A DNA stretch of 64,000 bases from Bacteroidales bacterium. Lineage in GTDB: Bacteria > Bacteroidota > Bacteroidia > Bacteroidales > JACABE01. The position numbers and the translations under genes were made by a program. The notes under the pieces were generated by a model, which was given only the letters and a program-made list of their open reading frames with translations, was not told where the DNA came from and searched no databases. Every line of letters begins with the position of its first letter. Position 1 is the first letter of the stretch. Below, piece by piece: positions 42,111 to 64,000 of the stretch. Where the stretch lies: contig JBMOKG010000008.1 of assembly GCA_049315385.1 (NCBI GenBank), positions 27,788 through 91,787 on the forward strand. The letters run 5' to 3'.

Positions 42111-44102
42111 TTAAACTTTTGTTTTTACAACTTTATTCCCTTCGACCAGTTTTTTTAAATCTTTCATACTTATATTTCCAATTGCCATTTGTTGCAATTG
42201 TCCCATAATCCAATTGGTTTCGTTTTCTTTAATTTCGTTAAAACGAATCGTAGAAAATTTTTCTCTCAGAAAAGGAATATGTTTCGTTATGTCTTCTTTA
42301 CTAATTTCTTTAAATTTAATACTTATCAGAACAGATTCCATATCCATTTTAGGATGCACAAAAATTACCGGCATCATCTTTTTAGCCAGTTTCAAATCGT
42401 ATTTATTCTTAAGTAGAAATGAAAATAAATCATAAATCATTTCATAACTAAACTCACGACCTTTTTTGTAATGCCCTTCAACATATTTAATGAAGTGACC
42501 AAAGAAAGTAGCAGTCAAAACAGGATTAATTTTTAATTCTTTAACGATTTTTTCAATTAAAGGGAAAAGATTCTTCTTAAATATATAAGTGTAAGTATCT
42601 TCGGGAACATTCCATGCTTTAAGTTGCTCATAACGGGTGATTACTTCAGTTGGAATATTTTTCTTTAACGATTCAATATAAGTTTCTTCCAATGGAATCG
42701 GTTTGGAGTCAGTATCCGGATACATTCGATCAGCACCAGGTAAAACACGTTCGAAAATAGTTGTACCATCAGCAAAAGATTTACGGGTTTCTTGAGGAAC
42801 GCCTTTAAAAGCCATATTACAACGTTCTTCTATAGTATCTATAGCAGTTTTAATATCTGCTTCAGGTCCCCAGAATATGATTTGAGCATCAGCATCACAA
42901 GCTTTGAAAATTTTACGGATGTAACTCTGGTCATCGCCTGCAATTAATGCATTCAATTCTTCTGAATGCGTCATATTTGGAATATCAATACATGCAATAA
43001 CTTTTAAACGTTCGCTTATTTCATTTGCAAACATCTTATCAGGTTGAGTAAAATAAGATAAAATACCTTTAAATTTAGGCAAATTAACTGCATAAATTTT
43101 ATATCCTGCTGTTTTAGCAGCTTTTATAGCATCACAAGGGAATTGCAAAGCATAGAAATCAAGTTCTTTAACTTCCATTTCCCAAGCAGGTTTATCTTTA
43201 ATTCTTTGTTGTAAAGTTTCACGAATTTGCAATAATGCCCATTGACGAAAACATTCATTATGTGTCAATTCAGGTATCCATTTAGTATGTGCAACACCTT
43301 TAATTTCAACACGTGTACCACCTTTACAACTAACATTCACATCCTGTCGGCCAGCACCAATGCCTGTTCTGACTTTATTTGTAGAACGATTGAGAAAGCG
43401 AATGTAATTGCAGGCTTCCATTACTTCATCAGGATTCATCATCTCAGGATAGGTTACTGTTTCTATCAAAGGCATGCCCAATCTGTCTGTTCTGTAAATT
43501 CTTGTATGCCCAATATCTGAAATTTCACGACAAGAATCCTCTTCAATACTAAGTTGTATTAATCGGATTTTTTTATTTTTCAAAGGGATTTCACCTTCTA
43601 CACCAATAATAGCAGTTCGCTGAAATCCTGCAGGAATACTTCCATCAAGATATTGTTTACGGGTAATATGTACTTCTCCGACAAGACTTAATTTTGATAA
43701 CATCGAAATTTCAATTGCAATACCCAATGCTTCCCGATTTATAGGAAATGGAGGTGTATCATCTACATCATAAGTACAGGTAGTTTCGTTTTTAATACGA
43801 TAAATAATTTCTTTTCTGGTTTTGAACTCCATTAATGCAGTTCCGTCATATTCTCCTAATTCGCTAAGTGTTGGCCTCATGTGACGCACAACTTCAGCAT
43901 CCCAAACTTTTGCTTTTTGAAAAATACCTGCAGGACAATGACAAAATAATTTTTCTTTGGTTAAAAGTTGTTGATGAACTTCCAACCCAGACATAAATCC
44001 AATTTTTGTATATGTTTCCTGATTAGCTTCTTTACGAGAAACATAACCGACTTTACGTTTTGATTCTTCGTAATTTTGTTTAGGATCGAAATGATTATCC
44101 AT
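42111..44102 (-). CDS. GatE-like (archaeal-type Glu-tRNA(Gln) amidotransferase subunit E family) protein
   Basis: 663 aa. N-terminal GLEVHQQLLTKEKLFCHCP, MRPTLSELGEYDGTA, DDTPPFPINREAL and RKQYLDGSIPAGFQRT match my recollection of GatE rather than the ~480-aa GatB. No GatD-like gene is adjacent. Confidence 0.65.
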   Translation of the reverse strand: MDNHFDPKQNYEESKRKVGYVSRKEANQETYTKIGFMSGLEVHQQLLTKEKLFCHCPAGIFQKAKVWDAEVVRHMRPTLSELGEYDGTALMEFKTRKEIIYRIKNETTCTYDVDDTPPFPINREALGIAIEISMLSKLSLVGEVHITRKQYLDGSIPAGFQRTAIIGVEGEIPLKNKKIRLIQLSIEEDSCREISDIGHTRIYRTDRLGMPLIETVTYPEMMNPDEVMEACNYIRFLNRSTNKVRTGIGAGRQDVNVSCKGGTRVEIKGVAHTKWIPELTHNECFRQWALLQIRETLQQRIKDKPAWEMEVKELDFYALQFPCDAIKAAKTAGYKIYAVNLPKFKGILSYFTQPDKMFANEISERLKVIACIDIPNMTHSEELNALIAGDDQSYIRKIFKACDADAQIIFWGPEADIKTAIDTIEERCNMAFKGVPQETRKSFADGTTIFERVLPGADRMYPDTDSKPIPLEETYIESLKKNIPTEVITRYEQLKAWNVPEDTYTYIFKKNLFPLIEKIVKELKINPVLTATFFGHFIKYVEGHYKKGREFSYEMIYDLFSFLLKNKYDLKLAKKMMPVIFVHPKMDMESVLISIKFKEISKEDITKHIPFLREKFSTIRFNEIKENETNWIMGQLQQMAIGNISMKDLKKLVEGNKVVKTKV

Positions 44103-50247: not shown

Positions 50248-53200
50248 TTATTGTAAAATCAATTTTTCTGTATGAGATTTCCCATTCGAAGTATTCACAA
50301 TATTTACAAAATAAACACCTTTTGAAAAAGATGATAAGTCAATATTTGTCAACATTTGATTTGTTCTTTGTTTTAATAACATATTTCCCACCAATGAATA
50401 GATTTTTATTTCTGCATCCGTTGTATTTTCAATTGCTATACTTAGTTTCCCATTTGTAGGATTTGGGAATAATCTGAAAGAGTTTGAATTATTTTCAATA
50501 ATTTTAGTTGTATAAATCTGAAGATCGTTGGAATCACGTGGTATCAAAACATAACCAGATAAGTACGGAGACGTTGCATCTATTTGACTTACAATACCTG
50601 TAATATTAAATGCTACTGTCGGTGCTGATTTTGCCTGTAGATTACAATTAGAAAACAATCTTAAAGTTACAGTATCAATGCCTTTCAATACAAGCACAGA
50701 AAATGTAGTAAAACCAGAAGTTGTTGGCCATCCACTCAAATAAGTAAGATTTTCCATTTTTACAAATTGAGATTCTACATTTTCAGTTAATGTAGCAACA
50801 ACTACTGGAATATGTAGACTATTTCCAGAAGATATGACAACGATAGAATCAGGAACTATTTCTGTAAGTCCGCTAACCTGAGCAATTTTACCTATTACTC
50901 TCAGTGAATCTCCTTCAACTGGGGTATAACTTAAGGTTGATGTTTTATAAACATTTATTCCTGCAGTAGCATCAAGTAAATAGAAATTCAAACCACCGGA
51001 AACTGCAGATTGTTTATAGTTCAATCCATGCACAACTCCGTTAAGTTTACAATTTACTGCAATTGAATCAGCAACACCATTACTGTTTACTGTTTTAACC
51101 TGAGCAATAGTATAAGAAACAGGTAATTTTTTTGTAGTAAAGATAATTTCGTTACCATAACCAATTCCTGCTGCAGAAATCCCATAAGCTCTTACATAGT
51201 AATTAGTGTTATTGGTTAAATTATTCAAAGTGCTGCTATACGTCCCTGTACTTCCTGAAACAACTGAAAAAGAATCTGTTATGGTTGGAATTGTATGCGT
51301 TGCCCAGCAAATACCTCTTGAGATTATAGTATCACCACCGTCACTTATTATAGTCCCTGAAACAGATGCAGAGGTGAAAGTAATTGCTGTTGCAGCAGCA
51401 GTTGTGACAACTGGCACAACTGCTGCTGCAGTTGTTTGAAAAGTTGAATCATTTCCATAAAAAGTACCCAGTGAATTAATACAATAGGCTCTATAATGGA
51501 AAACTGTATTAGCTGTTAGATTGGGGAGATTTACCGAATAAACACCAGTTGTTCCGCTTGATGTTTTTATAGAATCTATAATTGTTGGATTGGGATTAGT
51601 ACTATAACAAATTCCTCTCGAAGTAATGATACGGCCACCATCTGTTGGGATATTCCCAGAACAAACCGCAGTGTGTAACGTAATACTGGATGAAGTTCCT
51701 GTTATAATACTTGGGTTTCCATAATTTATTATTAAATCAGATATGTTTCTTGGCAAAATCTGATAGCCTGATGTGTAAGGAGAGGTTGCATCACTCTGAT
51801 TTACCAATCCTTTTATAGAAAAACTAACTGTTGCAGTTGGTGCTGCAGTTCCTTGAAGGTTACAATTGCTGTAAATTCTCAAAACAACAGTATCCATACC
51901 TTTAACAGTATAAACTGTTCTTGTATTACCTGCGGTAGTAGGCCAACCACTTAAGTAATATAAGTTATCAATTGTAACTAATTTTGATTCTACTGAATCA
52001 TAAGGTAAATTTACTGTTACTGGATTAAACAATGTATTTGCTGATGATAATACTGTCATTGAATCAGGTACGATTTCAATTAATCCATTTACTTGTGCAG
52101 TTTTTCCAATGATTCTTACTTTATCACCCTCTAGAACTGAATAGCCTAAATTTGTTGTTTTGTAAACATTTATACCCGCAGTTGAATCTAAAATAAAAAA
52201 GTTTAAACCAGTAGTTGCGTAATTCAAGCCATGAACAACACCTGTTAATTTGCAGTTCACATTTAATGAATCAGCTACACCAAGACTGTTAACTCCTTTT
52301 ACCTGTAAAATCGAATAAGATGGAATAAATATTTTTGATGTAAAACTTAATTGGTTTCCATAACCACATCCTATAGCATTGGTTGCAAAAGCTTTTACAT
52401 AATAAGTTGTACTTGGTAGTAGATTACTAATCAATGTAGAATAATTTGCTGTTGTTCCTGTTTGAAACCTAACTGTATCAAGGATAGTAGGATTTGAAAG
52501 TATGCTATAACAAACACCTTTAGTTAAAATAGTGCTTCCTCCATCATTGACAACCTTTGATACAACATTTGCAGTAAAAGTAGAAATATTATTAACTGAA
52601 TCTGTAGTTAGTATTGGAATAACAGCTGTTGCTGAAGTAAAAAATACTGAATCAGCACCATAAGCAACACCTGTAGAATTTCTTGCATAAGCTCTGTAGT
52701 GATAATTAGTTCCGAAACTTAGACCAATGAGGTTGCTACTGAAACTTCCAGTAGTACCTGTTTCAAGTGTATGACTTGCTGATGTATCCGGATTTATAAT
52801 TGTTGCGTAACAGATTCCTCTCGCTGTAATTGTCGTGCCTCCGGTAGCTGTTATATTTCCACTACATACGGCAGTTGTCATAGTAATATTTGTAGCAGAA
52901 GAAGTAAGAACTGTTGGTGAAGAATAATTAATTGACAGATCACTTAAATACCTTGGGTAAAGTGTATAAGATTGAAGATAAGGTGAAGAAGCATCATTTT
53001 GAGAAACAAGACCTGTAATATTGAAATTTGTTGTTGGTGCAGCGGTTCCCTGTAAATTACAACTGGAATGAATTATAATTATTAAACTATCTGCTCCATT
53101 TAATGTATAAACTGTTTTTGTAGTTCCGGCAGTAGTAGGCCATCCACTTAAGTAAATCAGATTATTAAGTTTAACCAGTTTTGATTCAATAGAATCTGTA

Positions 53201-56055
53201 AGACTATTAACTATCGAAGGAATTTGTAAGGTGTTTAAAGTAGATATTAAAACTATAGAATCAGGTATGATTTCAATTAATCCATTTACCTGTGCAATTT
53301 TACCAATGACTCTAACTTTATTACCTTCTGTAGGTGTATAATTTAATGAAGATGTTTTATAAACATTGATTCCGGATGTGGAATCTAAAATATAGAAATT
53401 ATAACCTGAGGTAGCATAATTCAATCCATGGACTATTCCTGTTAATTTACAATTTATATTTAATGAATCTGATACTCCAAGACTATTAATTCCTTTAACT
53501 TTTTGAATTGAATAAGCTGGAATAAATAATTTAGTGGTGAAGCTAATCATATTTCCATAAGCAGTTCCGGCCGAATTTGTAGCAAAAGCTTTTGTATAAT
53601 AAATTGTATTTGATAAAAGATTTCCTATCGTATCAATATAAGCACCAGTTGTTCCCGTTTGATAATTAATTGAATCAAGAATGGTTGGATTATTGATTGT
53701 ACTCCAGCAAACTCCTCTTGAAATAACAGTAGCACCTCCATCATTTATAACTTTTGAAGCTATTGTTGCATTATAAATACCAATATTAAAAACCGAGTCT
53801 GTTGTAAGTAAGGGTGTAACGGGATTAGCAGCAGTTGTAAATATTGAATCAGCGCCATAAGCAATACCTGTTGTATTTTTTGCATAAGCTCTGAAATGAT
53901 ATAAAGTCGCTGTTGAAAGTCCGCTTAAAGAACTATTAAAAACTCCTGTAGTACCGGTTTCTGTAGTATGGATTGAAGAAGTATCAGGATTGGCTGATGT
54001 TGAATAACAAATTCCACGAGCAGTTATAGCAGATCCTCCGTTAGCTGTGACATTACCACTACAGATAGCAGTAGTCATTGATATATTGGTTGCTGTTGTA
54101 GTAATAACTGTTGGAATTGTATAGTTTATTGAAAAATCTGACAAATATCTAGGATACACCATATATCCCTGCAAATAAGGTGAAGAGGCATCGCTTTGAG
54201 TAGCAATCCCGGTAATATTAAACGAAGCTGTTGGTGCTGTTGTACCCTGAATGTTACAGGAAGAATAGATAATAATACTAACGCTATCAGTACCATGTAA
54301 AGCATAAACAGTTTTTGTTGTACCCACTGTAGTCGGCCATCCGCTCAAATACGTCAGGTTGTTTATTTTAACTAATTTAGATTCTACAGTATCTGAAAGA
54401 TTATTAATAACAATAGGATTCTGTAAAGTGATTCCTGATGATATTTTAACGATTGAATCAGGAGCGATATAAATAAGTCCATTACTTTGTTGTGTTTTCC
54501 CGATAACTCTTAAAGAATCGCCTTCAGCAACAGTGTATCCTAATGAAGAAGTTTTATATACAAATATACCTTCATTATTATTCATCATATAAAAAGAATA
54601 TCCTGTAGTAATATAATTTAAACCGTGAACAACACCAGACAATTTACAGTTAACAGCAAGTGAATCAGCTACACCAGTTATTGGGTTAATCGAATGTATT
54701 TGAGAAATTGAATAAGTAGGAATAAATATCAATGTAGCAAAACTCACATCATTGCCATAACTTGTACCTACTGAATTTGTTGCAAAAGCTCTAATATGAT
54801 ATGTAGTGTTTTGAAGTAGATTTGAAATAGTATAAGTGTATATTCCAGTAGTGCCACTTACAATATTTACACTGTCAGTTAAAGTTGGATTAGAAATTGT
54901 GCTTCTACAAAAACCTCTTGAAGTGATAGCAGTACCTCCATCATTTATTATATTACCAGAAAAAGTTGCAGACCAATTAGAAATATTTGAAACTGAATTG
55001 GTTGTTATAAGAGGCAAAACAGCTGATGTGGCAGTTGAAAATACAGAATCTGCACCATAAGCAGTTCCTGAACCATTGGTTGCATAAGCTCTGTAATGAT
55101 ATGTTTTCCCCATTAATAATCCTGAAAGATTACTTGAAAAACTACCTAAACTACCTGTTTCTGAAGTGAATAAATTCGTAAGACCTGGATTAGCAAGTGT
55201 ATCATAACAAATTCCTCTTGCTGTAATTGCAGAACCACCGTTAGTAATAATATTACCGTTAACTGTTGCAAAATTTGTAGTAATATTGGATGGTGTTCCG
55301 GTTGATAAAATTGGAGTCGTTAAAAAGCCCACAGCATTGTACCATGTGTTTGCAATTCTTATTTCATCAACATTTAAATAAGTTGTATTTGTAGAAGTTC
55401 CTTGTCTTAATGCAAAAGAATATGCAGAATCGAGATCTGTTGAAGTAATGTCTGTTGCTTTTATTGTAGGTAAACCTTCCTCTGTAATACCAGGATTTAT
55501 AAATAATGATACACTATCATTTGCCGTGCCACTAACAAACTTATATTTTATTACTAATAAAAAAGTAGAATCAATAGAATATGTAGCAGCAGAATAAACT
55601 GTATTAGCAGATGTACTTCCTTTCAGAATTCCAAATGAAATTAATGAAGGATTCGTAGTGCTTTTTTTCACATAAACTCTTGCAGCAAAATTTGTTGTAT
55701 TTCTTAAAAAGTGCATAAAATATTCACCGGTAGTTATTGCCGAGTCAATTTTTACTAATGCTGATGCATAAATTGTACCACTATTTTGGCCTGTAAATGT
55801 CCGGTTAATGTCTTGGCCAGTATTCATTAAATACGCCTTATTTCCAACAGATACAGGGTATTGAGGATAGTTTAACGATCCGTTTTTTATAAGTACAGAA
55901 TTTACACCTGTACTATGAATTTGCCAGCCGTGTGTACTTAAAGTATCTCCAGCAGTATAATCAAAGTGTTCATTCAGAAATACTGTTTGAGCATGAACAG
56001 TAAATGTAAACATGGCCATAAATACAACTAAAATTGTAAAAATAATTTTTTTCAT
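50248..56055 (-). CDS. giant (1935 aa) repetitive T9SS-secreted surface protein
   Basis: Signal peptide ending VHAQT, a unique ~225-aa N-domain, four ~400-aa tandem super-repeats, and a T9SS CTD (FRLFPNPTNGKLSIAI...GVYFVNIV...KLILQ). Confidence 0.9.
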   Translation of the reverse strand: MKKIIFTILVVFMAMFTFTVHAQTVFLNEHFDYTAGDTLSTHGWQIHSTGVNSVLIKNGSLNYPQYPVSVGNKAYLMNTGQDINRTFTGQNSGTIYASALVKIDSAITTGEYFMHFLRNTTNFAARVYVKKSTTNPSLISFGILKGSTSANTVYSAATYSIDSTFLLVIKYKFVSGTANDSVSLFINPGITEEGLPTIKATDITSTDLDSAYSFALRQGTSTNTTYLNVDEIRIANTWYNAVGFLTTPILSTGTPSNITTNFATVNGNIITNGGSAITARGICYDTLANPGLTNLFTSETGSLGSFSSNLSGLLMGKTYHYRAYATNGSGTAYGADSVFSTATSAVLPLITTNSVSNISNWSATFSGNIINDGGTAITSRGFCRSTISNPTLTDSVNIVSGTTGIYTYTISNLLQNTTYHIRAFATNSVGTSYGNDVSFATLIFIPTYSISQIHSINPITGVADSLAVNCKLSGVVHGLNYITTGYSFYMMNNNEGIFVYKTSSLGYTVAEGDSLRVIGKTQQSNGLIYIAPDSIVKISSGITLQNPIVINNLSDTVESKLVKINNLTYLSGWPTTVGTTKTVYALHGTDSVSIIIYSSCNIQGTTAPTASFNITGIATQSDASSPYLQGYMVYPRYLSDFSINYTIPTVITTTATNISMTTAICSGNVTANGGSAITARGICYSTSANPDTSSIHTTETGTTGVFNSSLSGLSTATLYHFRAYAKNTTGIAYGADSIFTTAANPVTPLLTTDSVFNIGIYNATIASKVINDGGATVISRGVCWSTINNPTILDSINYQTGTTGAYIDTIGNLLSNTIYYTKAFATNSAGTAYGNMISFTTKLFIPAYSIQKVKGINSLGVSDSLNINCKLTGIVHGLNYATSGYNFYILDSTSGINVYKTSSLNYTPTEGNKVRVIGKIAQVNGLIEIIPDSIVLISTLNTLQIPSIVNSLTDSIESKLVKLNNLIYLSGWPTTAGTTKTVYTLNGADSLIIIIHSSCNLQGTAAPTTNFNITGLVSQNDASSPYLQSYTLYPRYLSDLSINYSSPTVLTSSATNITMTTAVCSGNITATGGTTITARGICYATIINPDTSASHTLETGTTGSFSSNLIGLSFGTNYHYRAYARNSTGVAYGADSVFFTSATAVIPILTTDSVNNISTFTANVVSKVVNDGGSTILTKGVCYSILSNPTILDTVRFQTGTTANYSTLISNLLPSTTYYVKAFATNAIGCGYGNQLSFTSKIFIPSYSILQVKGVNSLGVADSLNVNCKLTGVVHGLNYATTGLNFFILDSTAGINVYKTTNLGYSVLEGDKVRIIGKTAQVNGLIEIVPDSMTVLSSANTLFNPVTVNLPYDSVESKLVTIDNLYYLSGWPTTAGNTRTVYTVKGMDTVVLRIYSNCNLQGTAAPTATVSFSIKGLVNQSDATSPYTSGYQILPRNISDLIINYGNPSIITGTSSSITLHTAVCSGNIPTDGGRIITSRGICYSTNPNPTIIDSIKTSSGTTGVYSVNLPNLTANTVFHYRAYCINSLGTFYGNDSTFQTTAAAVVPVVTTAAATAITFTSASVSGTIISDGGDTIISRGICWATHTIPTITDSFSVVSGSTGTYSSTLNNLTNNTNYYVRAYGISAAGIGYGNEIIFTTKKLPVSYTIAQVKTVNSNGVADSIAVNCKLNGVVHGLNYKQSAVSGGLNFYLLDATAGINVYKTSTLSYTPVEGDSLRVIGKIAQVSGLTEIVPDSIVVISSGNSLHIPVVVATLTENVESQFVKMENLTYLSGWPTTSGFTTFSVLVLKGIDTVTLRLFSNCNLQAKSAPTVAFNITGIVSQIDATSPYLSGYVLIPRDSNDLQIYTTKIIENNSNSFRLFPNPTNGKLSIAIENTTDAEIKIYSLVGNMLLKQRTNQMLTNIDLSSFSKGVYFVNIVNTSNGKSHTEKLILQ
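50509..55317. repeat. four ~1.2-kb tandem coding repeats inside the giant gene
   Basis: Protein periodicity is 399-403 aa: the Y(S/T)I landmark falls at aa 448, 848, 1247 and 1648. Approximate unit boundaries are 55317/54117/52920/51717/50509. Confidence 0.85.
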
Positions 56056-56532
56056 AAGAAAATAAATAATTTGTGAATTAATAAATTAACTTACAAATAT
56101 CAGAATTATTTTGATTGAAATTACATCAAAAATTTATAATATTATAATTTCATACATAAAATAAAAAATTTTATACAATTTAGATTTTAATGTTACAAAA
56201 TGACATTAAAACGATTTAGAACATTAATGTTACTGAATATTTTCAAACTGTATAATACTTTAATTACAGAACTAATTTTATTTAAAATATTATTAGATTT
56301 TATTGCTTTATTATCTGTAATTTCAAGAACTTATGATTTGCAAAAAAACTTAGTTGTTGATTTTTACAACAGATGTTTAATTTCTTTACACTTTCATATT
56401 TATCACACCCTAAGGATATAACATATTTTTCAGATATTACATGTAGAATTTTTAAACACTTTCCGATTAATTAGTCTTATTATTAATTTACTTTATCACT
56501 GTATTACTGCACTTTACAAACTTTTATTTTGT

Positions 56533-56547
56533 TGGCATGAAAATTGA
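56533..56547 (+). promoter_or_regulatory. candidate sigma-54 (-24/-12) promoter
   Basis: TGGCATgaaaaTTGA versus consensus TGGCAC-N5-TTGC. The GG-to-G spacing is correct, with two deviations (C to T at -22, C to A at -12). It lies 38 nt upstream of the ATG at 56585, and an NtrC-type activator is encoded in the locus. Confidence 0.55.
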
Positions 56548-56584
56548 ATATTAGTTTTTACAAACAAATTAAAAACTTAAAATC

Positions 56585-57274
56585 ATGGTAATCCTAATTT
56601 TTATAGCATTTATAGTGGCATGTTTCACAGTGGATGCGATCGTTCGGTATAGTAGAAAAAATAAATCAAGAATTTCTGCTTTAGTTTCAGATTCATTAAA
56701 TGTTTTTAATGAAAATTCAGTAACAATTCCAAAAGGTATTTATTTCGACAAGTCTCATACCTGGGCATTTATGGAAAAGAATGGCTTCGTTAAAATCGGA
56801 ATTGATGATTTCTTTCTTCATATTACAGGTCCTTTGAGTCGTTTAATAATGAAAAATCAAGGAGATAAAATTCAAAAAGGTGAAGCTATATTAACAATTG
56901 TTCAAAATGGGAAACAGTTGATTATTAATGCTCCTATTTCAGGAACCGTTAAATCCAGGAACATTCAACTTGAAGCAGATCCCTCAATTTTAAATCTATC
57001 CCCTTATAATGATGGATGGTTTTATACAATTGAGCCTTCAGATTGGTTAAGAGATACACAATTTCTATTTATGGCAGATAAATATAAGGAATGGCTGAAA
57101 AATGAATTCGCAAGACTTAAAGATTTTCTTGCCATAAACATTCAAACCAGAAATGCAGAGTTTGTTCCAGTAATGCTTCAGGATGGAGGAGAACTAAAAG
57201 ACAATGTCCTTGAAGATTTTGGACCTGAAGTATGGGAGGAATTTCAAATAAAATTCATAAACACTTCCAAATAA
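56585..57274 (+). CDS. membrane-anchored GcvH-like (glycine-cleavage H-fold) protein, paralogue 1
   Basis: N-terminal TM helix followed by RYSRKNKSR. GcvH motifs SHTWAF, KIGIDDF, APISGTV and SPYNDGWFYTIEPSD. A ~70-aa C-terminal extension is shared with paralogue 2. Confidence 0.75.
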   Translation: MVILIFIAFIVACFTVDAIVRYSRKNKSRISALVSDSLNVFNENSVTIPKGIYFDKSHTWAFMEKNGFVKIGIDDFFLHITGPLSRLIMKNQGDKIQKGEAILTIVQNGKQLIINAPISGTVKSRNIQLEADPSILNLSPYNDGWFYTIEPSDWLRDTQFLFMADKYKEWLKNEFARLKDFLAINIQTRNAEFVPVMLQDGGELKDNVLEDFGPEVWEEFQIKFINTSK

Positions 57275-57318
57275 ATACAATTCAAACTCGGTCTTATAAA
57301 TATTAAATACTTGTAATT

Positions 57319-58185
57319 ATGAGTTTAAATAGAAGAGAGTTTTTAAAAACTGCTGGAGTTGTTGGGATTTCACTTACAGTAGGTAATAGTTTTGCTGCTG
57401 TAAAAAATAAAGAGGCAGATGTTGAATTCCGAGGAATGCTCTATGATTCTTCGAGATGTGTCGGTTGTCAGACTTGTGAAAATGTTTGCGCAGAGGCTAA
57501 CAAATTATCACCACCTGTAGGCGAACCTAAAACCGGGATTATCAGAAAAACAGATGAAAAGCATAATACAACCGTAAATTGTTATAAAACATCAAAAGGT
57601 GATGTTTTTATAAAAACTCAGTGCATGCATTGCAATGAACCTGCCTGTGCAGCAGCTTGTCTGACCAAAGCAATGTATAAAACAAAGGAAGGACCAGTTA
57701 TCTGGCGAGCTGATAAATGTATGGGATGTCGCTATTGTATGGTTTCATGCCCTTTTGATATACCAAAATTTGAATACCATAGTGCAAATCCAAAGATTCA
57801 AAAGTGTTCAATGTGTTTTGATAAATTAAAAAAAGGAGGAATTCCATTTTGTGCTGAAAATTGTCCAGCAGAAGCCATTAAATTCGGAACACGTCGTGAA
57901 TTAATCAAAGAAGCAAGGAAAAGAATTGTTGAAAACCCCGGAACTTATATTGATGAAATTTATGGAGAACATACAGCTGGAGGAACTGGATTTTTATATA
58001 TTTCTTCAGTTCCATTCAATGAACTTGGATTGAATAATAAACTTCAAAATAAATCCTATCCTGAATTATCGAAAGGATTTTTATTTAGCGTACCAACAGT
58101 ATTCGTGCTTTTACCGCCAATTTTATTAGGAATTTATGAAGCCACTAAAAAAAAACAACTCCATGAAAACGATGAAAATATATAA
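57319..58185 (+). CDS. Tat-exported HybA/NrfC/DsrO-like 4x[4Fe-4S] ferredoxin subunit
   Basis: Twin-arginine signal NRREFLKTAG. Four Cys clusters (CVGCQTCENVC, CMHCNEPACAAAC, CMGCRYCMVSCP, CSMC...CAENCP). C-terminal TM anchor. Confidence 0.85.
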   Translation: MSLNRREFLKTAGVVGISLTVGNSFAAVKNKEADVEFRGMLYDSSRCVGCQTCENVCAEANKLSPPVGEPKTGIIRKTDEKHNTTVNCYKTSKGDVFIKTQCMHCNEPACAAACLTKAMYKTKEGPVIWRADKCMGCRYCMVSCPFDIPKFEYHSANPKIQKCSMCFDKLKKGGIPFCAENCPAEAIKFGTRRELIKEARKRIVENPGTYIDEIYGEHTAGGTGFLYISSVPFNELGLNNKLQNKSYPELSKGFLFSVPTVFVLLPPILLGIYEATKKKQLHENDENI

Positions 58186-59407
58186 TCAGGAATTACCACT
58201 TTCTCCAGATAATAGAAATCTTTCTACTTTTAAGTTTATAATGAGTGAACTCAAACCAAAGGGTAAATTGATAACTCCGTTTAATTTAATTTCAATTCCA
58301 ATAATTATTTTAGGTGTAGTGTTGATTGTTATTCGTTTTATTAATGGTATAGGTTCTGTTACAAATCTAACACAGGAAGTACCATGGGGATTATGGATTG
58401 GATTTGATGTAGTTACAGGAGTAGCATTTGCTGGTGGAGCTTATGTTCTGACATTTATGGTTTATATACTAAATATGCAGAAATACCATTCTATTGTGAG
58501 GGTTACGGTTTTAAATGGATTTCTGGCCTATGTATTTTATGCAGGAGCTTTACTTCTGGATTTGGGTCGCCCGTGGAATGTAATCAATCCTATCATCGGA
58601 AATAGTTTTGGAACTAGTTCTGTTTTATTTCTGGTTGCTTGGCATTTTTTACTATATATGATAGCAGAATTAATTGAGTTTTCTCCTGCAATAGCTGAAT
58701 GGCTGGGTGCAAAACGAATTCACAAATTTCTTTCGGGAATGACAATTGCAGCAGTCATTTTTGGAATAACGTTATCTACTTTGCATCAATCAGGATTGGG
58801 AGCATTGTATCTGATGGCTAAAGATAAAATCCATCCTTTATGGTATTCTGAATTTATACCTGTTCTGTTTTTAATATCAAGTGTTTTTGCAGGCCTATCG
58901 ATGGTAATATTCGAAGGGTCCATTAGCCATAAAGTGTTCTTTAATCAAATAAGTAAAAAAAACCATGAAGCTCAGAAAGGAATTGTTTTGGGACTGGCTA
59001 AAATATGTGCAGCAGCAATGTTTGCATACTTTTTTATGCAATTACTGGTTTTCATTCATGGAAAACGCTGGGACTTATTAAATACATCAATGGGTTATTG
59101 GTATTTACTGGAAATGTTTGGTTTTGTACTTCTTCCGATGATGCTTTATGTGTACAGCTATAAAATGAAGAATATTACATTGGTCAAAGTTGCGGCTATT
59201 ATAACTATGCTAGGAATTATTTTAAACCGTTTAAATGTTACTGTTATTGGATTTCGTTGGGATGCTGCCATTCGGTATTTTCCAACATGGATGGAATTTG
59301 TTGTCACATTAACTGTTATTTTTACTGAAATCTGGATATTCAGATGGGTTATTAACCGTATGCCTGTTTTAAGAGATTCCCTGGAATGGGTCAATGAAAA
59401 AAATTAA
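58136..59407 (+). CDS. NrfD/HybB/PsrC-like polytopic quinone-interacting membrane subunit
   Basis: About 10 TM helices directly after the FeS subunit. The track ORF overlaps the upstream gene by 50 nt. The probable true start is the ATG at 58241 (MSELKPKGKLITPFNLISIPIIILG), which resembles the HybB N-terminus. Confidence 0.8.
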   Translation: MKPLKKNNSMKTMKIYNQELPLSPDNRNLSTFKFIMSELKPKGKLITPFNLISIPIIILGVVLIVIRFINGIGSVTNLTQEVPWGLWIGFDVVTGVAFAGGAYVLTFMVYILNMQKYHSIVRVTVLNGFLAYVFYAGALLLDLGRPWNVINPIIGNSFGTSSVLFLVAWHFLLYMIAELIEFSPAIAEWLGAKRIHKFLSGMTIAAVIFGITLSTLHQSGLGALYLMAKDKIHPLWYSEFIPVLFLISSVFAGLSMVIFEGSISHKVFFNQISKKNHEAQKGIVLGLAKICAAAMFAYFFMQLLVFIHGKRWDLLNTSMGYWYLLEMFGFVLLPMMLYVYSYKMKNITLVKVAAIITMLGIILNRLNVTVIGFRWDAAIRYFPTWMEFVVTLTVIFTEIWIFRWVINRMPVLRDSLEWVNEKN

Positions 59408-59453
59408 ATTAATAAGCATTTTGAATTTATGGAAAACACAAAAATAAGAAAAC

Positions 59454-60173
59454 ATGGAAGGATTTAATTATTATAATATATTCGACACCAAGGGCATTGA
59501 ATATATTGCTATTATCGCATTTTTTATTATTTTGATACCTTTTTGGATTATATTGAATAAAAGCGAAGAAATAAAGAACAAAATTAAAGAAGTATTTAGC
59601 ATTTTGACATTTGATACTTTAAAAATTCCTCAAGGTATTTTTTATAGCAAAAATCATACTTGGGCATATTTGGAAAAATCAGGTGATGCTTCTGTTGGTA
59701 TAGACGACTTTCTTATACATTCAACTGGAGATGTTAAATTACATATTCTTAAAAATTCTAATGATCTCATTTCAAAGGGAGACTTGATTACAGAAATAAT
59801 AAAAGATGATAAAATTCTTAAAATTTTTTCACCAATATCTGGGAAAATTGTAAAAAGCAATGTTCAACTTGATAATGAACCAACATTGTTAAATATTGAT
59901 CCTTATGGTAAAGGCTGGATTTATAAAATAAAACCTTCAAAATGGATCGATGAAACTCAAACTTTATTTTTAGCTGAGGATGCAACAAATTGGTCAAAAT
60001 CGGAAATGCAACGGTTTAAAGATTTTATGGCATTGTCAACTAAAAAATATTCAAATGAAAATAATTTAGCGATACTTCAGGATGGAGGTGAATTAGTTGA
60101 TCATCCGCTTTCGGAACTTTCTCGAAATGTATGGCTGGATTTTCAGGAAAATTTTCTAAAACCTAAAGACTAA
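59454..60173 (+). CDS. membrane-anchored GcvH-like protein, paralogue 2
   Basis: Same architecture as 56585-57274: TM helix, NHTWAY, VGIDDF, SPISGKI, DPYGKGWIYKIKPS, then LQDGGELVDHPL...WLDFQ. Confidence 0.75.
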   Translation: MEGFNYYNIFDTKGIEYIAIIAFFIILIPFWIILNKSEEIKNKIKEVFSILTFDTLKIPQGIFYSKNHTWAYLEKSGDASVGIDDFLIHSTGDVKLHILKNSNDLISKGDLITEIIKDDKILKIFSPISGKIVKSNVQLDNEPTLLNIDPYGKGWIYKIKPSKWIDETQTLFLAEDATNWSKSEMQRFKDFMALSTKKYSNENNLAILQDGGELVDHPLSELSRNVWLDFQENFLKPKD

Positions 60174-60334
60174 ATTCTTAAATATCAAATTAATGATCCA
60201 AATCCTTACTTTTTTAATCCTTTGATTTTAATAGTTTTATTACAATTTACTAGAATTAAGTATAAATTCTTTCAATAATCTTACTGAATTTATAATTATA
60301 GTTGAATTATTCAACATATTAATGAATATTTTAT

Positions 60335-60342
60335 TAAATTTG
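60335..60342 (+). promoter_or_regulatory. candidate -7 promoter box (TAAATTTG) for the kinase/regulator pair
   Basis: TAnnTTTG match about 26 nt upstream of the ATG at 60368. Confidence 0.35.
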
Positions 60343-60367
60343 TAGTTTATTAAATCACTTAGAAATA

Positions 60368-62026
60368 ATGGCAATAAAATTCAGAGATTTACTTGAAAGT
60401 CCATTACTTAAAAAGTATTTAAAAATCCGGTCCTCAATATATGGTCGTGTTGTCCTAATCATCGTTATTTTTTCGATATTTCTTTTTGTTTCATTTGGAA
60501 TAATCTTCCGATCAGTCAACGAAGAATATATGAAAAATCTCATTCATCAACGTGGCACTAATGCAGCTCTAATGGTCAGAAGTGCATTATATCAGTCAAT
60601 GTTGGAAAATAATAAAACCTCTCTTCAGACTACACTGGATGTTATAAACAGAATGTCAGGAATTGATGAAGTAAATTTATATAATAGTAATGAAAATCTT
60701 GTTTATTCGTCTTTTTCTTCAAACACTTCAGGACATAGTAATCCCAATTGCTTAGAATGTCATAAGAGTATTAAATCTATATTACCCGAAAAAGATAATT
60801 TTTCAAAAATCATAGAGATTAATAGTGAATGTGAAATGAATCAAAATGACAATGCTCACAGGCATTTACTAATCAATTCACCTATTCAGAACGAGAAATC
60901 ATGTTATACCAGTTCGTGTCATGCACATCCACAAAGCGAAAAAATTTTAGGTTCACTTGTAATAAAAATCCCTTTAGAAAACCTTGATACAACGCTTGAG
61001 AAGTCATCAATGGATTTCTATCTATTAGCTACACTAACAACACTATTATTGTTGGGCTTTCTTATATTTTTCACCAGTAAAAAGATTAAAAATCCTTTAA
61101 ATGCATTAATAAATGCAAGTGATGCTGTTTCGAAAGGAGACAATAATATGAGACTTGAAATAAAACCTAATCAGCTGGATGACATGAGAATGGTTTCATT
61201 AGCATTTAATCACATGCTGGATAATTTACAGTCTGCTAATATAGAATTACAAAACTGGTCCCAACAACTTGAATACAAAGTCAGGATAAAATCTGAAGAA
61301 TTAGGTCAAGCTCAAAATGAATTAATAAATATTGAAAAGATAGCTTCTTTAGGGAAATTATCCCTTTCTGTTGCTCATGAAATCAACAATCCTCTATCAG
61401 GAATTTTAATTTACACAAAATTAGTTCAAAAGCAATTGCTAAATCAGGAATTAGAAGCAGGTAAAAAGGAAATGGTTTTGAAACATTTGAAAATGATAGA
61501 GAATGAAACAAAACGTTGCGGTGATATCGTAAAAGGTTTATTGGATTTCTCAAGAAAAGATCAAAACTTTTTCGAAGATAAACATTTGCATGAAGTGCTA
61601 AGAGAAACAAGTGATTTGATGAATCACTCAATGAAAATTGCCAAGATATTTTTCACAACTGATTTTTTAGCAAATAATGATCTTGTTTATTGTAGTCCCA
61701 ATCAGATTAAACAAGCTTGTATTGCTATTTTAGTAAATGCATCAGAAGCTGTCACTGAAAATGGTGAAGTCTTCTTTAAAACATACAATCCGGACGAAAA
61801 TCAAATTTGTATAGAAATCACAGATAATGGTTCAGGAATAAATGAAGAAGATATTCCTCATATTTTCGAGCCTTTCTTTTCTACAAAATATAATACCAGA
61901 GGAACTGGTTTGGGATTAGCAATCGTTCATGGAATTATACAAAGTCATAACGGCAAAATCGAATTAAAATCAGATGTAGGAAAAGGAACGAGAATTTCAA
62001 TTTTATTACCTTTAAAACGAAAATAA
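60368..62026 (+). CDS. sensor histidine kinase with extracytoplasmic haem-c-motif domain
   Basis: Two TM helices flank a ~180-aa loop containing CLECH (60749-60763) and CYTSSCH (60902-60922). A HAMP-like linker follows, then the H-box SVAHEINNPL and ATPase boxes DNGSGI and GTGLGLAI. Confidence 0.85.
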   Translation: MAIKFRDLLESPLLKKYLKIRSSIYGRVVLIIVIFSIFLFVSFGIIFRSVNEEYMKNLIHQRGTNAALMVRSALYQSMLENNKTSLQTTLDVINRMSGIDEVNLYNSNENLVYSSFSSNTSGHSNPNCLECHKSIKSILPEKDNFSKIIEINSECEMNQNDNAHRHLLINSPIQNEKSCYTSSCHAHPQSEKILGSLVIKIPLENLDTTLEKSSMDFYLLATLTTLLLLGFLIFFTSKKIKNPLNALINASDAVSKGDNNMRLEIKPNQLDDMRMVSLAFNHMLDNLQSANIELQNWSQQLEYKVRIKSEELGQAQNELINIEKIASLGKLSLSVAHEINNPLSGILIYTKLVQKQLLNQELEAGKKEMVLKHLKMIENETKRCGDIVKGLLDFSRKDQNFFEDKHLHEVLRETSDLMNHSMKIAKIFFTTDFLANNDLVYCSPNQIKQACIAILVNASEAVTENGEVFFKTYNPDENQICIEITDNGSGINEEDIPHIFEPFFSTKYNTRGTGLGLAIVHGIIQSHNGKIELKSDVGKGTRISILLPLKRK

Positions 62027-62038
62027 AGAGAACATATA

Positions 62039-63391
62039 ATGAGTAAAAAAATTTCAATTTTAATCGTTGATGATGAAGATTCAGTAAGAGACTCTCTTTT
62101 CAATTGGTTTATCGAAGATGGCTATCGTGTTGAATGTGCAGAGAATGCAAAGATAGCATTGTCAAAACTTGAATTTGAAAATTTTGACATTATTCTAGCA
62201 GATATAAAAATGCCGGGTATGGATGGCCTTGAAATGTTAAGAAGAATAAAATCATTAAAAAATGATTCTATTGTAATTGTTATGACAGCATTTGCCACGG
62301 TAGATACGGCTGTTCAGGCATTAAAAGACGGTGCTTTTGATTATATAACAAAACCTTTTGATCCTGATGATTTGTCTCATCTAATTCGAAATGCCACTAA
62401 ACAAATTTCATTGCTGAAAGAAAACGAAAATCTTAAAGAAAGAGTCATTACACTTGAGAATGTCGAAGATTTGGTTGGAAAAAGCGAAGGAATGAAAAAA
62501 GTACTTAAAGAGGTTGAAAGTGTAGCACAATCAAATACTTCCGTTATTATTACAGGAGAAAGCGGCACAGGAAAAGAATTGATAGCTAAAGCTATTCACG
62601 CCAATTCTTCACGGAAATTCTTTCCGTTGGTAAGTGTTCATTGTGGAGCATTGTCAGATAGTTTACTGGAAAGTGAGTTGTTTGGTCATGAAAAAGGTGC
62701 ATTCACTGGAGCAATGTACAATCGTAAAGGCCGATTTGAAATGGCCGATAGTGGAACTATTTTTCTAGATGAAATTGCAACTATTTCTACTAAGATGCAG
62801 GTTGAATTATTGCGTGTTATTGAAACAAAATCTTTTATCAGAGTAGGTGGAAATAAAGAAATAAATTCTGACTTCAGGGTAATTTGCGCTACAAACCGGA
62901 ATTTAAAACAAATGGTTGAAGAAGGTAGTTTTCGGGAAGATTTATTTTACCGTTTAAATGTCGTAAATATTCACGTACCACCTCTTCGTGAAAGAAGAGA
63001 AGACATTCCTTTACTGACAGAATATTTCATTAAAAAGTATTGCACTTCGATGAGTAAACCTGGAATACAGATTGATTCTTCTGCCTTGAAACGTTTGGAA
63101 GAATTTGATTTCCCAGGTAATATACGAGAACTTGAAAATATGATAGAACGTGCTATAGTCATTGGTAATGGAAAAAAAATCACATTAAAAGATCTCCCTT
63201 TTGAAAAAAGCAGCACACATAGTTCTTTAGAAAGCCTTGATGAACAGGAGAAAATACATATAGCTCAAATTTTAATTAAATATGATTGGAATATTTCACG
63301 GACAGCAAAAGCATTACAGGTTGACAGAGTAACTCTTTATAATAAAATAAAGAAATACAACTTAAAATCCTCGGAATCTAAACAATCCTAA
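62039..63391 (+). CDS. sigma-54-dependent response regulator (NtrC family)
   Basis: REC domain (DIILADIKMPGMDG), AAA+ Walker A GESGTGKE, the sigma-54 contact loop GAFTGA, and a C-terminal Fis-type HTH. Confidence 0.93.
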   Translation: MSKKISILIVDDEDSVRDSLFNWFIEDGYRVECAENAKIALSKLEFENFDIILADIKMPGMDGLEMLRRIKSLKNDSIVIVMTAFATVDTAVQALKDGAFDYITKPFDPDDLSHLIRNATKQISLLKENENLKERVITLENVEDLVGKSEGMKKVLKEVESVAQSNTSVIITGESGTGKELIAKAIHANSSRKFFPLVSVHCGALSDSLLESELFGHEKGAFTGAMYNRKGRFEMADSGTIFLDEIATISTKMQVELLRVIETKSFIRVGGNKEINSDFRVICATNRNLKQMVEEGSFREDLFYRLNVVNIHVPPLRERREDIPLLTEYFIKKYCTSMSKPGIQIDSSALKRLEEFDFPGNIRELENMIERAIVIGNGKKITLKDLPFEKSSTHSSLESLDEQEKIHIAQILIKYDWNISRTAKALQVDRVTLYNKIKKYNLKSSESKQS

Positions 63392-63511
63392 AACTTATAA
63401 GAATATTAAATTCAAAATTCTTTTATTTTTAAGATCCGAAATCTTTGATAAATACTCTTTAGAAATTAAATTATACAGCATAATATAAATGCTTTCTACA
63501 ATTATTTTTGA

Positions 63512-64000
63512 ATGGATTTAAATAATATCACATTAATAACTTTCGGTTACTTCGATAACGATTTTCTTAACAAAATTGCAGAAAATATTCATCGCGAATT
63601 TCACATCTCTATACAAATTAAAGAAGCACATATCGATATAAGTGAGTTTTATAATCCTGCTCGACGCCAATATGATGCCAATAAACTTTTATACCTGATT
63701 GAAAAAGATTATTCATCAGATGAAGCAAAGACCATTGGATTATTTAATATCGATTTATTTATACCTATTTTCACATATATTTTTGGTCAGGCTTTTTTAA
63801 GTGGAAAAACAGGAATTGCTTCTGCTTTTAGATTAAGCAATGAACGCTATGGAATTAAACCTGACAAAGCTCTTTATTTAGAACGTGTAAGTAAAGAAAT
63901 TATACATGAACTTGGCCATACTTTTGGGTTGATTCATTGTTCTATTCCTGATTGTGTCATGAGATCAGGAACTTATGTCGAAGATATTGATCAAAAAGAT
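63512..64000 (+). CDS. archaemetzincin-family zinc metallopeptidase (3' end outside window)
   Basis: Hand translation from the ATG at 63512 gives MDLNNITLITFGY ... HELGHTFGLIHCSIPDCVM, i.e. the HExxHxxGxxxC...C.M archaemetzincin signature. The frame stays open to the window end. Confidence 0.75.
   Translation, partial: MDLNNITLITFGYFDNDFLNKIAENIHREFHISIQIKEAHIDISEFYNPARRQYDANKLLYLIEKDYSSDEAKTIGLFNIDLFIPIFTYIFGQAFLSGKTGIASAFRLSNERYGIKPDKALYLERVSKEIIHELGHTFGLIHCSIPDCVMRSGTYVEDIDQKD

Follow-up and report, generated by a model that had tools for sequence, protein, structure and literature searches.

In sulfate reducers, the HmcB/HmcC pair works with c3-type multihaem cytochromes bearing both CxxCH and Cx4CH motifs. 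The GcvH fold, to our knowledge, is known only from soluble lipoyl carriers. NrfD-type modules commonly serve anaerobic respiration as membrane adaptors, and the set of complexes that they form is treated as largely known; the NrfD-type subunits carry no redox cofactor, and none of the complexes in a 2021 review has a GcvH-like subunit (PMC8076601). The GcvH-like protein LbpA is linked to sHdr genes and dedicated lipoate-protein ligases (PMC6067878), and archaemetzincins are defined by the motif HEXXHXXGXXHCX4CXM...CXXC, their biological role being described as largely unknown (PMC3427221). Here we describe a Bacteroidota locus in which these elements are encoded together. The window, a stretch of 64,000 nucleotides from a Bacteroidales contig (JBMOKG010000008.1), carries at positions 56533-64000 on the + strand a cassette whose conserved genes are all co-oriented and encode two membrane-anchored GcvH-like proteins, a HybA-type ferredoxin, an NrfD-family subunit, a sensor histidine kinase, an NtrC-type sigma-54 activator and an archaemetzincin.

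This seven-gene unit is conserved across many anaerobic Bacteroidota. We are confident of its architecture and regulatory logic, namely a self-contained cassette with a sigma-54-type promoter and its own kinase and activator. Our preferred reading of its function, which we hold tentatively, is that the seven genes may form a self-contained, self-regulated envelope redox cassette. Searches of the accessible literature found no paper joining NrfD with GcvH or glycine cleavage or describing this gene combination, and none linking an archaemetzincin with sigma-54.

Conservation and gene order

We refer to the first and second GcvH-like proteins as GcvA and GcvB, to the kinase as HK, to the activator as RR and to the archaemetzincin as Amz. 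The genes of the window, in order, are the following.

56585-57274, + strand: GcvA, 229 amino acids (aa); transmembrane (TM) helix at residues 2-20, a linker of ~37 residues, a GcvH fold with Gly109-Lys110 and a C-terminal module of ~60 aa
57319-58185, + strand: HybA/HmcB-like periplasmic ferredoxin; Tat signal NRREFLK, 16 Cys, C-terminal TM helix at residues 254-272
58172-59407, + strand: NrfD-family polytopic subunit of the HybB/HmcC type; start uncertain (58136, 58172 or 58241)
59454-60173, + strand: GcvB, 239 aa; conserved N-terminal peptide IFDTKGxEY, one TM helix, a GcvH fold and a C-terminal module as in GcvA
60368-62026, + strand: sensor histidine kinase; TM helix, periplasmic PDC/PAS-like domain, TM helix, HAMP, HisKA, HATPase_c
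62039-63391, + strand: NtrC-type sigma-54 activator; Response_reg, Sigma54_activat (233.8 bits), GAFTGA, HTH_8
63512-64000, + strand, continuing past the window end: archaemetzincin (Peptidase_M54); no signal peptide; motif HELGHTFGLIHCSIPDCVM

A scan of one genome per species returned at least 506 matching stretches, and gene order was mapped with the seven window proteins in the best 80 loci. The relatives inspected are at least 50% identical to GcvA, all come from Bacteroidota and most are metagenome-assembled genomes (MAGs); the best 80 loci belong to Bacteroidales, Prolixibacteraceae, Draconibacterium and Mariniphaga. A homologue search with GcvA gave 243 proteins, the labelled members of which are all from Bacteroidota, and a search of representative proteins gave 446 protein clusters at E ≤ 1e-30.

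The full order GcvA-HybA-NrfD-GcvB-HK-RR-Amz was found in 54 of the 80 species-level loci, and most of the others (14) are interrupted by contig ends. Six loci carry GcvA-HK-RR-Amz only (L008, L011, L019, L020, L026 and L029), with the kinase, regulator and archaemetzincin directly after GcvA. The regulatory half sits upstream of GcvA in one locus, and in two the kinase is duplicated and Amz displaced beyond the fetched stretch. Of the remaining three, two have mobile-element-like genes after a shortened cassette, as judged from N-terminal sequences only. Losses within the cassette are coordinated: GcvB is missing whenever HybA and NrfD are missing, and these losses leave GcvA, HK, RR and Amz in place. 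The archaemetzincin follows the activator in every locus with enough sequence, including the loci without HybA, NrfD and GcvB.

The first-pass annotation of the window had proposed a four-gene order from GcvA to GcvB followed by the kinase and the activator. Its six open reading frames (ORFs) and their order stand, and only the extent has to be corrected, the archaemetzincin being a seventh conserved gene. It had also stated that no catalytic partner is encoded, and this was borne out both within 6 kb of the cassette in the window and in the 80 related loci, in which none is conserved. An unconserved gene order, a partner merely lost from this locus and failure of the GcvH-like proteins against the GCV_H profile had been named beforehand as evidence to the contrary, and none of these was found.

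The surroundings of the cassette are not conserved. Two relatives on long contigs have identical genes in an identical order between different flanks, and clustering of the flanking ORFs of the 80 loci yielded no family common to more than seven of them. No lipoate ligase, Hdr-like, gcvT/gcvP, LplA2, SirTM or macrodomain gene recurs in these flanks. We therefore regard the cassette as autonomous, with no catalytic partner travelling with it. That it is the remnant of a hyb or hmc operon was ruled out, no hydrogenase, HmcA, HmcE or HmcF being present in the 80 loci.

Several individual loci deserve mention in their own right. A tandem duplicate of the sensor kinase gene lies inside the cassette in L022, L032 and L046. 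The cassette appears to break after GcvA in L010 (9306-14495) and after the kinase in L025 (7897-9018), and in both the next ORFs resemble integrases, recombinases or transposases by their N-terminal sequences only. In a marine relative (L001:5222-8366), the opposite strand just upstream of the cassette encodes a multihaem cytochrome, a cytochrome b and a Rieske protein; other loci do not keep this neighbourhood.

Promoter, activator sites and sensor kinase

A -24/-12-like promoter had been noticed before the first gene from the letters of the window, and the comparison of loci showed the element to be real. This site and the palindromes associated with the cassette are listed below.

56533-56548, + strand: sigma-54-type promoter, TGGCAT-N5-TTGAA, with the site TGGCATGAAAATTGA at 56533-56547, 52 nt before the GcvA start codon, conserved across loci
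56355-56371, + strand: distal activator palindrome TGTTGATTTTTACAACA, 178 nt before the -24 element, two mismatches to TGTTGAA-N3-TTCAACA
56374-56390, + strand: weaker neighbouring palindrome TGTTTAATTTCTTTACA, at -159, read by eye
56442-56458, + strand: proximal activator palindrome TGTAGAATTTTTAAACA, 91 nt before the -24 element, presumed site of the NtrC-type regulator
60300-60316, + strand: pre-kinase palindrome AGTTGAATTATTCAACA, one mismatch to the consensus, 52 nt upstream of the kinase start

The exact consensus TGGCAY-N5-TTGA was found in 60 of 85 fetched loci, once in 59 of them and twice in L051, and all 60 have a + strand copy immediately before the first gene. Across ~1.2 Mb of related loci the motif is almost confined to the cassette, which is therefore at least the main local target. 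A single site is not significant in the window (0.48 expected per window), but conservation across loci rules out a chance match. The -24 element is canonical (GG). At -12, the window and most other loci read TTGA, some loci read TTGC or TTGG, and the minimal L011, L019 and L020 are among those with TTGC.

Anchoring on the promoter revealed a 17-bp palindrome, TGTTGAA-N3-TTCAACA, at about -95 and at about -165 to -190 in 54 of the 64 loci scanned, with 34 sites in the -100 to -91 bin. The 14.7 kb of upstream sequence holds 101 matches and the other 1.15 Mb holds 73, a roughly 100-fold enrichment upstream of GcvA. This is the classical arrangement of a sigma-54 promoter and the sites of its enhancer-binding protein. 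The pre-kinase palindrome AGTTGAATTATTCAACA is present in nine of 63 loci, eight of which are close relatives of the window, and may be an autoregulatory site; a Bacteroidetes-style motif, TAAATTTG, lies just after it at ~60335-60342. A scan for sigma-70 promoters and terminators was uninformative in this AT-rich Bacteroidota sequence.

The two regulatory proteins agree with their first description. The activator matches Sigma54_activat, contains GAFTGA and is a conserved member of the cassette. In the kinase, the loop between the two TM helices carries the predicted CXXCH and CX4CH motifs, and C128xxC131H132, C155, C179x4C184H185 and H187 are invariant in 68 orthologues, including those of the six loci without HybA and NrfD. 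CxxCH and Cx4CH together are the motif mix of c3/Hmc-type cytochromes. An AlphaFold 2 (AF2) model of the loop (pLDDT 69) is PDC/PAS-like and resembles WalK and CitA, the haem-c domain of GSU0935 (3b42) being a lower-scoring match. Against Mcp40H-20_sensor, HisK_sensor and Tll0287-like the loop scored 15.0, 16.8 and 8.8 bits, below the cut-offs of 24-27; these families include that of the haem-c chemoreceptor sensors of Geobacter. On these motifs and this fold, a haem-based sensor is a plausible prediction for the kinase.

GcvH-fold proteins, HybA-NrfD and archaemetzincin

The window had been thought to encode two TM-anchored GcvH-fold proteins, and both profile and structure comparisons agree. 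GcvA and GcvB, paralogues with 38% identity, scored 73.8 and 79.2 bits against Pfam GCV_H (cut-off 22.2), and an AF2 model of GcvA (pLDDT 84) superposes on the E. coli H protein with a TM-score of 0.94 and a root-mean-square deviation of 1.2-1.4 Å. The NCBIfam GcvH equivalogs TIGR00527 and NF002270 were not reached (60.9-78.2 bits against cut-offs of 115.85 and 117). Judged by these scores, GcvA and GcvB are GcvH-fold proteins and not GcvH orthologues. The C-terminal module of ~60 residues, marked by LQDGGEL, has the invariant residues E174, R177, D180, F181, Q199, G201, G202, W217, F220 and Q221 in GcvA, and the module had no match in Pfam or in a sequence search of the PDB. Canonical glycine cleavage was ruled out as the role of these proteins: the GcvH equivalogs fail, the proteins are membrane-anchored and gcvT/gcvP are not recurrent. 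Membership in sHdr/LbpA or GcvH-L/SirTM systems was likewise ruled out, as the partner genes do not recur in the flanks.

At the tip of the hairpin, the Lys (Lys110 in the window) is invariant in 81 of 81 GcvA sequences and is always preceded by Gly. The corresponding position of GcvB (Lys120 in the window) is Lys in 57 of 61 sequences, Arg in three and Asn in one. The hairpin motif is NGKQL, and in ungapped alignments its Lys lies one residue after the canonical lipoyl-Lys. In GcvA, this Lys may carry lipoate.

The GcvA of the window is not the usual form. The best 150 representative proteins are all close relatives of GcvA, and nearly all have a length of 530-595 aa. In the typical protein, of ~560 aa, a signal peptide leads into a PBP_like_2 (PstS-type) domain, which a single TM helix separates from the GcvH fold and the C-terminal module (for example, L025:1130-2860, L049:6990-8684 and L069:6948-8666). 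PBP_like_2 was matched in two of the three long proteins scanned (31-33 bits, cut-off 27), and a PDB sequence search with this ectodomain returned noise only. Among 81 GcvA sequences, 18 are shorter than 300 aa and 59 longer than 500 aa; the 229-aa protein of the window is a derived, truncated form without the ectodomain, from a minority clade. In this clade the promoter lies ~51-55 nt upstream of the start of the short ORF itself, which rules out that short GcvA is a pseudogene remnant. As a separate observation, the PstS-like ectodomain of the usual GcvA contains a canonical EF-hand-like loop, PIDKNGNGKIDYMENIY (DKNGNGKID), which suggests periplasmic binding of calcium or another ligand.

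The topology of the two proteins bears directly on function. In each of the 59 long GcvA proteins (>500 aa), the N terminus is a hydrophobic, signal-peptide-like segment, and the periplasmic domain lies between it and the TM helix. The 15 residues after the TM helix hold more Lys and Arg than the 15 before it, on average 4.0 against 1.0 in GcvA and 3.5 against 0.9 in GcvB. Because of the signal-peptide-like segments and this positive-inside charge bias, both GcvH domains are predicted to be cytoplasmic, across the membrane from the Tat-exported HybA.

The HybA-NrfD pair corresponds to what had been read from the window. HybA passes Fer4_11 (70.8 bits, cut-off 26.2) with a Tat signal, and across orthologues the RR motif of this signal and the 16 Cys, sufficient for four [4Fe-4S] clusters, are invariant, as expected of the four-cluster ferredoxin with a C-terminal anchor that had been proposed. 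The NrfD/HybB-type assignment of its neighbour is confirmed by Pfam NrfD (54.4 bits, cut-off 25.8). No protein of the cassette is more conserved than the NrfD subunit, in which conservation starts near residue 34 of the longest ORF and a crude scan gave nine hydrophobic segments; a PDB sequence search with it gave nothing useful. Over their full length the two proteins share 35% (HybA) and 30% (HybB) identity with their E. coli counterparts. NCBIfam equivalog cut-offs were not reached, HybA scoring 311.5 bits for HmcB (cut-off 420) and 226.9 for HybA (263), and the NrfD subunit 405 bits for HmcC (550) and 259 for HybB (450). The HybB residues R89, Y99, E148 and H184, mutation of which impairs H2 oxidation coupled to ion translocation (PMC8076601), correspond to the invariant R122, Y132, E181 and H217 of the cassette protein. 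A 2021 survey of complete genomes placed HybB in Proteobacteria, Acidobacteria, Aquificae and Deferribacteres, Bacteroidetes not being named (PMC8076601).

The archaemetzincin scored 73.6 bits against Peptidase_M54 (cut-off 24.4). Its HEXXHXXGXXHCX4CXM motif is seen up to the window end, and the full motif, including CPSC, is present in the L004 orthologue. A possible role of Amz is the processing of GcvA or GcvB.

Two genes of the window outside the cassette are noted here. Divergent from the cassette, at 50248-56055 on the - strand, lies a gene for a protein of 1935 aa that carries a type IX secretion sorting domain (Por_Secre_tail) and about five large internal repeats, each closing with a YLSGWPTT-like motif. 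A 663-aa ORF at 42111-44102 on the - strand matches GatB_N over residues 38-477; this match exceeds the 277-position profile and points to an insertion of ~160 aa in the catalytic domain.

Proposed function and comparison with known systems

In the reading that we tentatively prefer, the steps of regulation are read from conserved anatomy and those of the output from homology. The kinase would sense a periplasmic redox signal or ligand through its PDC-type domain, probably with a covalent c-type haem, and phosphorylate the NtrC-type activator, which would bind the two TGTTGAA-N3-TTCAACA palindromes and open the sigma-54 promoter before gcvA-hybA-nrfD-gcvB. HybA and NrfD would then act as a module of the HybAB/HmcBC type, linking the menaquinone pool by electron transfer to a periplasmic partner, with this transfer coupled to proton movement through NrfD. 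The partner of HybA may be a cytochrome encoded outside the cassette or the haem domain of the kinase itself. GcvA and GcvB, single-pass proteins with cytoplasmic GcvH domains, would stand off the electron path: GcvB would belong to the HybA-NrfD module as its cytoplasmic subunit, and GcvA would be a receptor-like adaptor joining the membrane module and an extracellular ligand to cytoplasmic components. We read GcvA in this way because the kinase, regulator and protease always accompany it and because its usual form has a PstS-like domain. These assignments of HybA-NrfD as a menaquinone-linked periplasmic Fe-S wire, of GcvB as its subunit and of GcvA as an adaptor are inferred with less confidence than the architecture.

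Several points weigh against this proposal. No periplasmic partner of HybA was identified within the cassette, and, as the relatives inspected share at least 50% identity with GcvA, a catalytic partner might be encoded at more distant loci. The confidence of the kinase model is moderate (pLDDT 69), its sensor-domain Pfam matches are sub-threshold, and its Cys/His set could bind a metal rather than haem. The -12 element is TTGA and not the canonical TTGC. The invariant Lys110 of GcvA would also suit a true cofactor carrier in the cytoplasm, and the proposed adaptor role of GcvA and GcvB draws on topology and co-loss patterns only.

The HybA-NrfD pair invites two other explanations. It could be an ordinary orphan HybAB/HmcBC quinone module for an unlinked hydrogenase, formate dehydrogenase or multihaem cytochrome, with the GcvH-like proteins as structural or assembly subunits and the two-component system as a standard inducer. 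The full-length homology to HybA and HybB and the retained functional residues fit this, multihaem cytochromes are encoded nearby in some genomes, such as L001, and in other bacteria NrfCD-type modules have been suggested to feed unlinked cytochromes (PMC9386147). We nevertheless consider it unlikely: no partner family recurs in the 80 loci, the HybB survey names no Bacteroidetes (PMC8076601), the scores lie under the HybA, HybB, HmcB and HmcC equivalog cut-offs, and it would not account for why the pair is strictly linked to two GcvH-fold proteins, a PstS-like ectodomain and an archaemetzincin. The pair could instead serve signalling and not respiration, relaying the redox state of menaquinone to the haem domain of the kinase, which would take the place that HmcA has beside HmcB. 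The haem-motif domain of the always adjacent kinase is the only candidate periplasmic redox partner in the cassette, its invariant motifs combine CxxCH and Cx4CH as in c3/Hmc-type cytochromes, and HmcB and HmcC are the best NCBIfam matches of the pair. However, six loci keep the kinase motifs intact without HybA and NrfD, the two proteins lie behind the regulated promoter and so look like output rather than input, and a contact between HybA and the kinase is without supporting evidence; we judge this improbable. A further reading, in which an HmcBC-like wire would report menaquinone or an extracellular oxidant to the haem kinase, membrane-tethered GcvH-fold proteins modified on the invariant hairpin Lys would relay or store the information in the cytoplasm and the archaemetzincin would act on them, would amount to a new transmembrane sensory/redox device, and seems to us quite unlikely.

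The remaining explanations start from the GcvH fold. The first-pass annotation had suggested that the GcvH-like proteins are carriers or substrates analogous to DsrC or LbpA, lipoylated and exchanging electrons with the quinone pool through HybA-NrfD. Their fold is a true GcvH fold, the hairpin Lys is kept in 81 of 81 GcvA and 57 of 61 GcvB sequences, a cytoplasmic site would suit the lipoylation machinery, and GcvH-like proteins work outside glycine cleavage elsewhere (PMC6067878, PMC12440151). The topology argues against it: with the GcvH domains predicted to be cytoplasmic, HybA exported to the periplasm and NrfD free of cofactors (PMC8076601), a role as redox substrates of HybA is unlikely. 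The cassette encodes no electron path reaching the cytoplasm, no HdrD, DsrK or dihydrolipoamide dehydrogenase being present in it or recurrent in its flanks, and no dedicated lipoate ligase or Hdr-like gene recurs there. Moreover, Arg or Asn replaces the GcvB Lys in four species, the Lys is offset by one residue from the lipoyl position, and GcvA persists in six loci without HybA, NrfD and GcvB. We thus give this suggestion little chance of being right. Equally doubtful is a membrane-tethered lipoyl reservoir or antioxidant response like the S. aureus GcvH-L operon, in which the kinase would sense oxidants and the archaemetzincin act on the modified Lys. GcvH-L guards S. aureus against oxidative stress (PMC12440151), the minimal loci consist of just GcvA, the kinase, the regulator and Amz behind a sigma-54 promoter, and the hosts, judged from record titles, are anaerobes of anoxic lakes, sediments and groundwater. 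The flank clustering of the 80 loci, however, brought up no LplA2, SirTM or macrodomain genes; a metzincin lipoamidase would be without precedent, and HybA-NrfD would again be left unexplained.

The locus would add to the NrfD-type modules a widespread Bacteroidota type with GcvH-fold accessory subunits. It offers several experimental handles, namely a defined pair of sigma-54 promoter and activator sites in Bacteroidota, a probable haem-based sensor kinase and a fixed genomic partner for archaemetzincins. Were the sensory device described above to prove true, it would provide the first physiological substrate for the archaemetzincin family, and GcvA would ancestrally have had a PstS-like receptor domain. 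Among relatives with a genus label, the closest are MAGs placed in Draconibacterium and Mariniphaga, both cultured genera; if isolates of these carry the cassette, experiments become feasible.

Comparison with described systems places the cassette near several of them. E. coli HybA-HybB also consists of a Tat-exported four-cluster ferredoxin with a TM anchor beside an NrfD-family subunit of about ten helices. In contrast to E. coli hydrogenase-2, the cassette lacks the HybO/HybC hydrogenase and maturation genes, and its pair is flanked by single-pass GcvH-fold proteins. The Desulfovibrio HmcB/HmcC proteins, with their Nhc and Tmc relatives, are likewise a periplasmic Fe-S protein and an NrfD-type membrane subunit, and they provide the best-scoring NCBIfam models. 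Unlike Hmc, the cassette has no HmcA cytochrome, HmcE cytochrome b or HdrD-like HmcF, and its sole haem-motif protein is the sensor kinase.

For the kinase, the closest parallels are Geobacter GSU0582 and GSU0935, WalK and CitA, which likewise have a periplasmic, predicted PDC/PAS-like domain between TM helices. The CxxCH motif is shared with the Geobacter proteins, whereas the cassette kinase adds Cx4CH and an extra invariant Cys and its output feeds a sigma-54 activator. In TorT-TorS, LuxP-LuxQ and ChvE-VirA, a periplasmic binding protein is encoded beside a sensor kinase, which offers an analogy only. Compared with these, the binding domain of the usual GcvA is TM-tethered, fused to a cytoplasmic GcvH fold and placed behind the regulated promoter, and the GcvA of the window has no binding domain at all.

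In contrast to LbpA, the GcvH-like proteins of the cassette are not accompanied by recurrent sHdr genes or lipoate-protein ligases in the 80 loci. The GcvA model also matches GcvH-L (5a35), the GcvH-like protein of S. aureus and S. pyogenes, structurally. With GcvH of glycine cleavage the cassette proteins share the fold, the HxW, GxxD and PxSG motifs and the Lys at the hairpin tip; the hairpin motif is NGKQL and not ESVKA, and gcvT/gcvP are not nearby. GcvH itself is a soluble protein of ~130 aa, whereas the proteins described here have a TM anchor, a C-terminal extension of ~60 aa and, usually, a PBP ectodomain.

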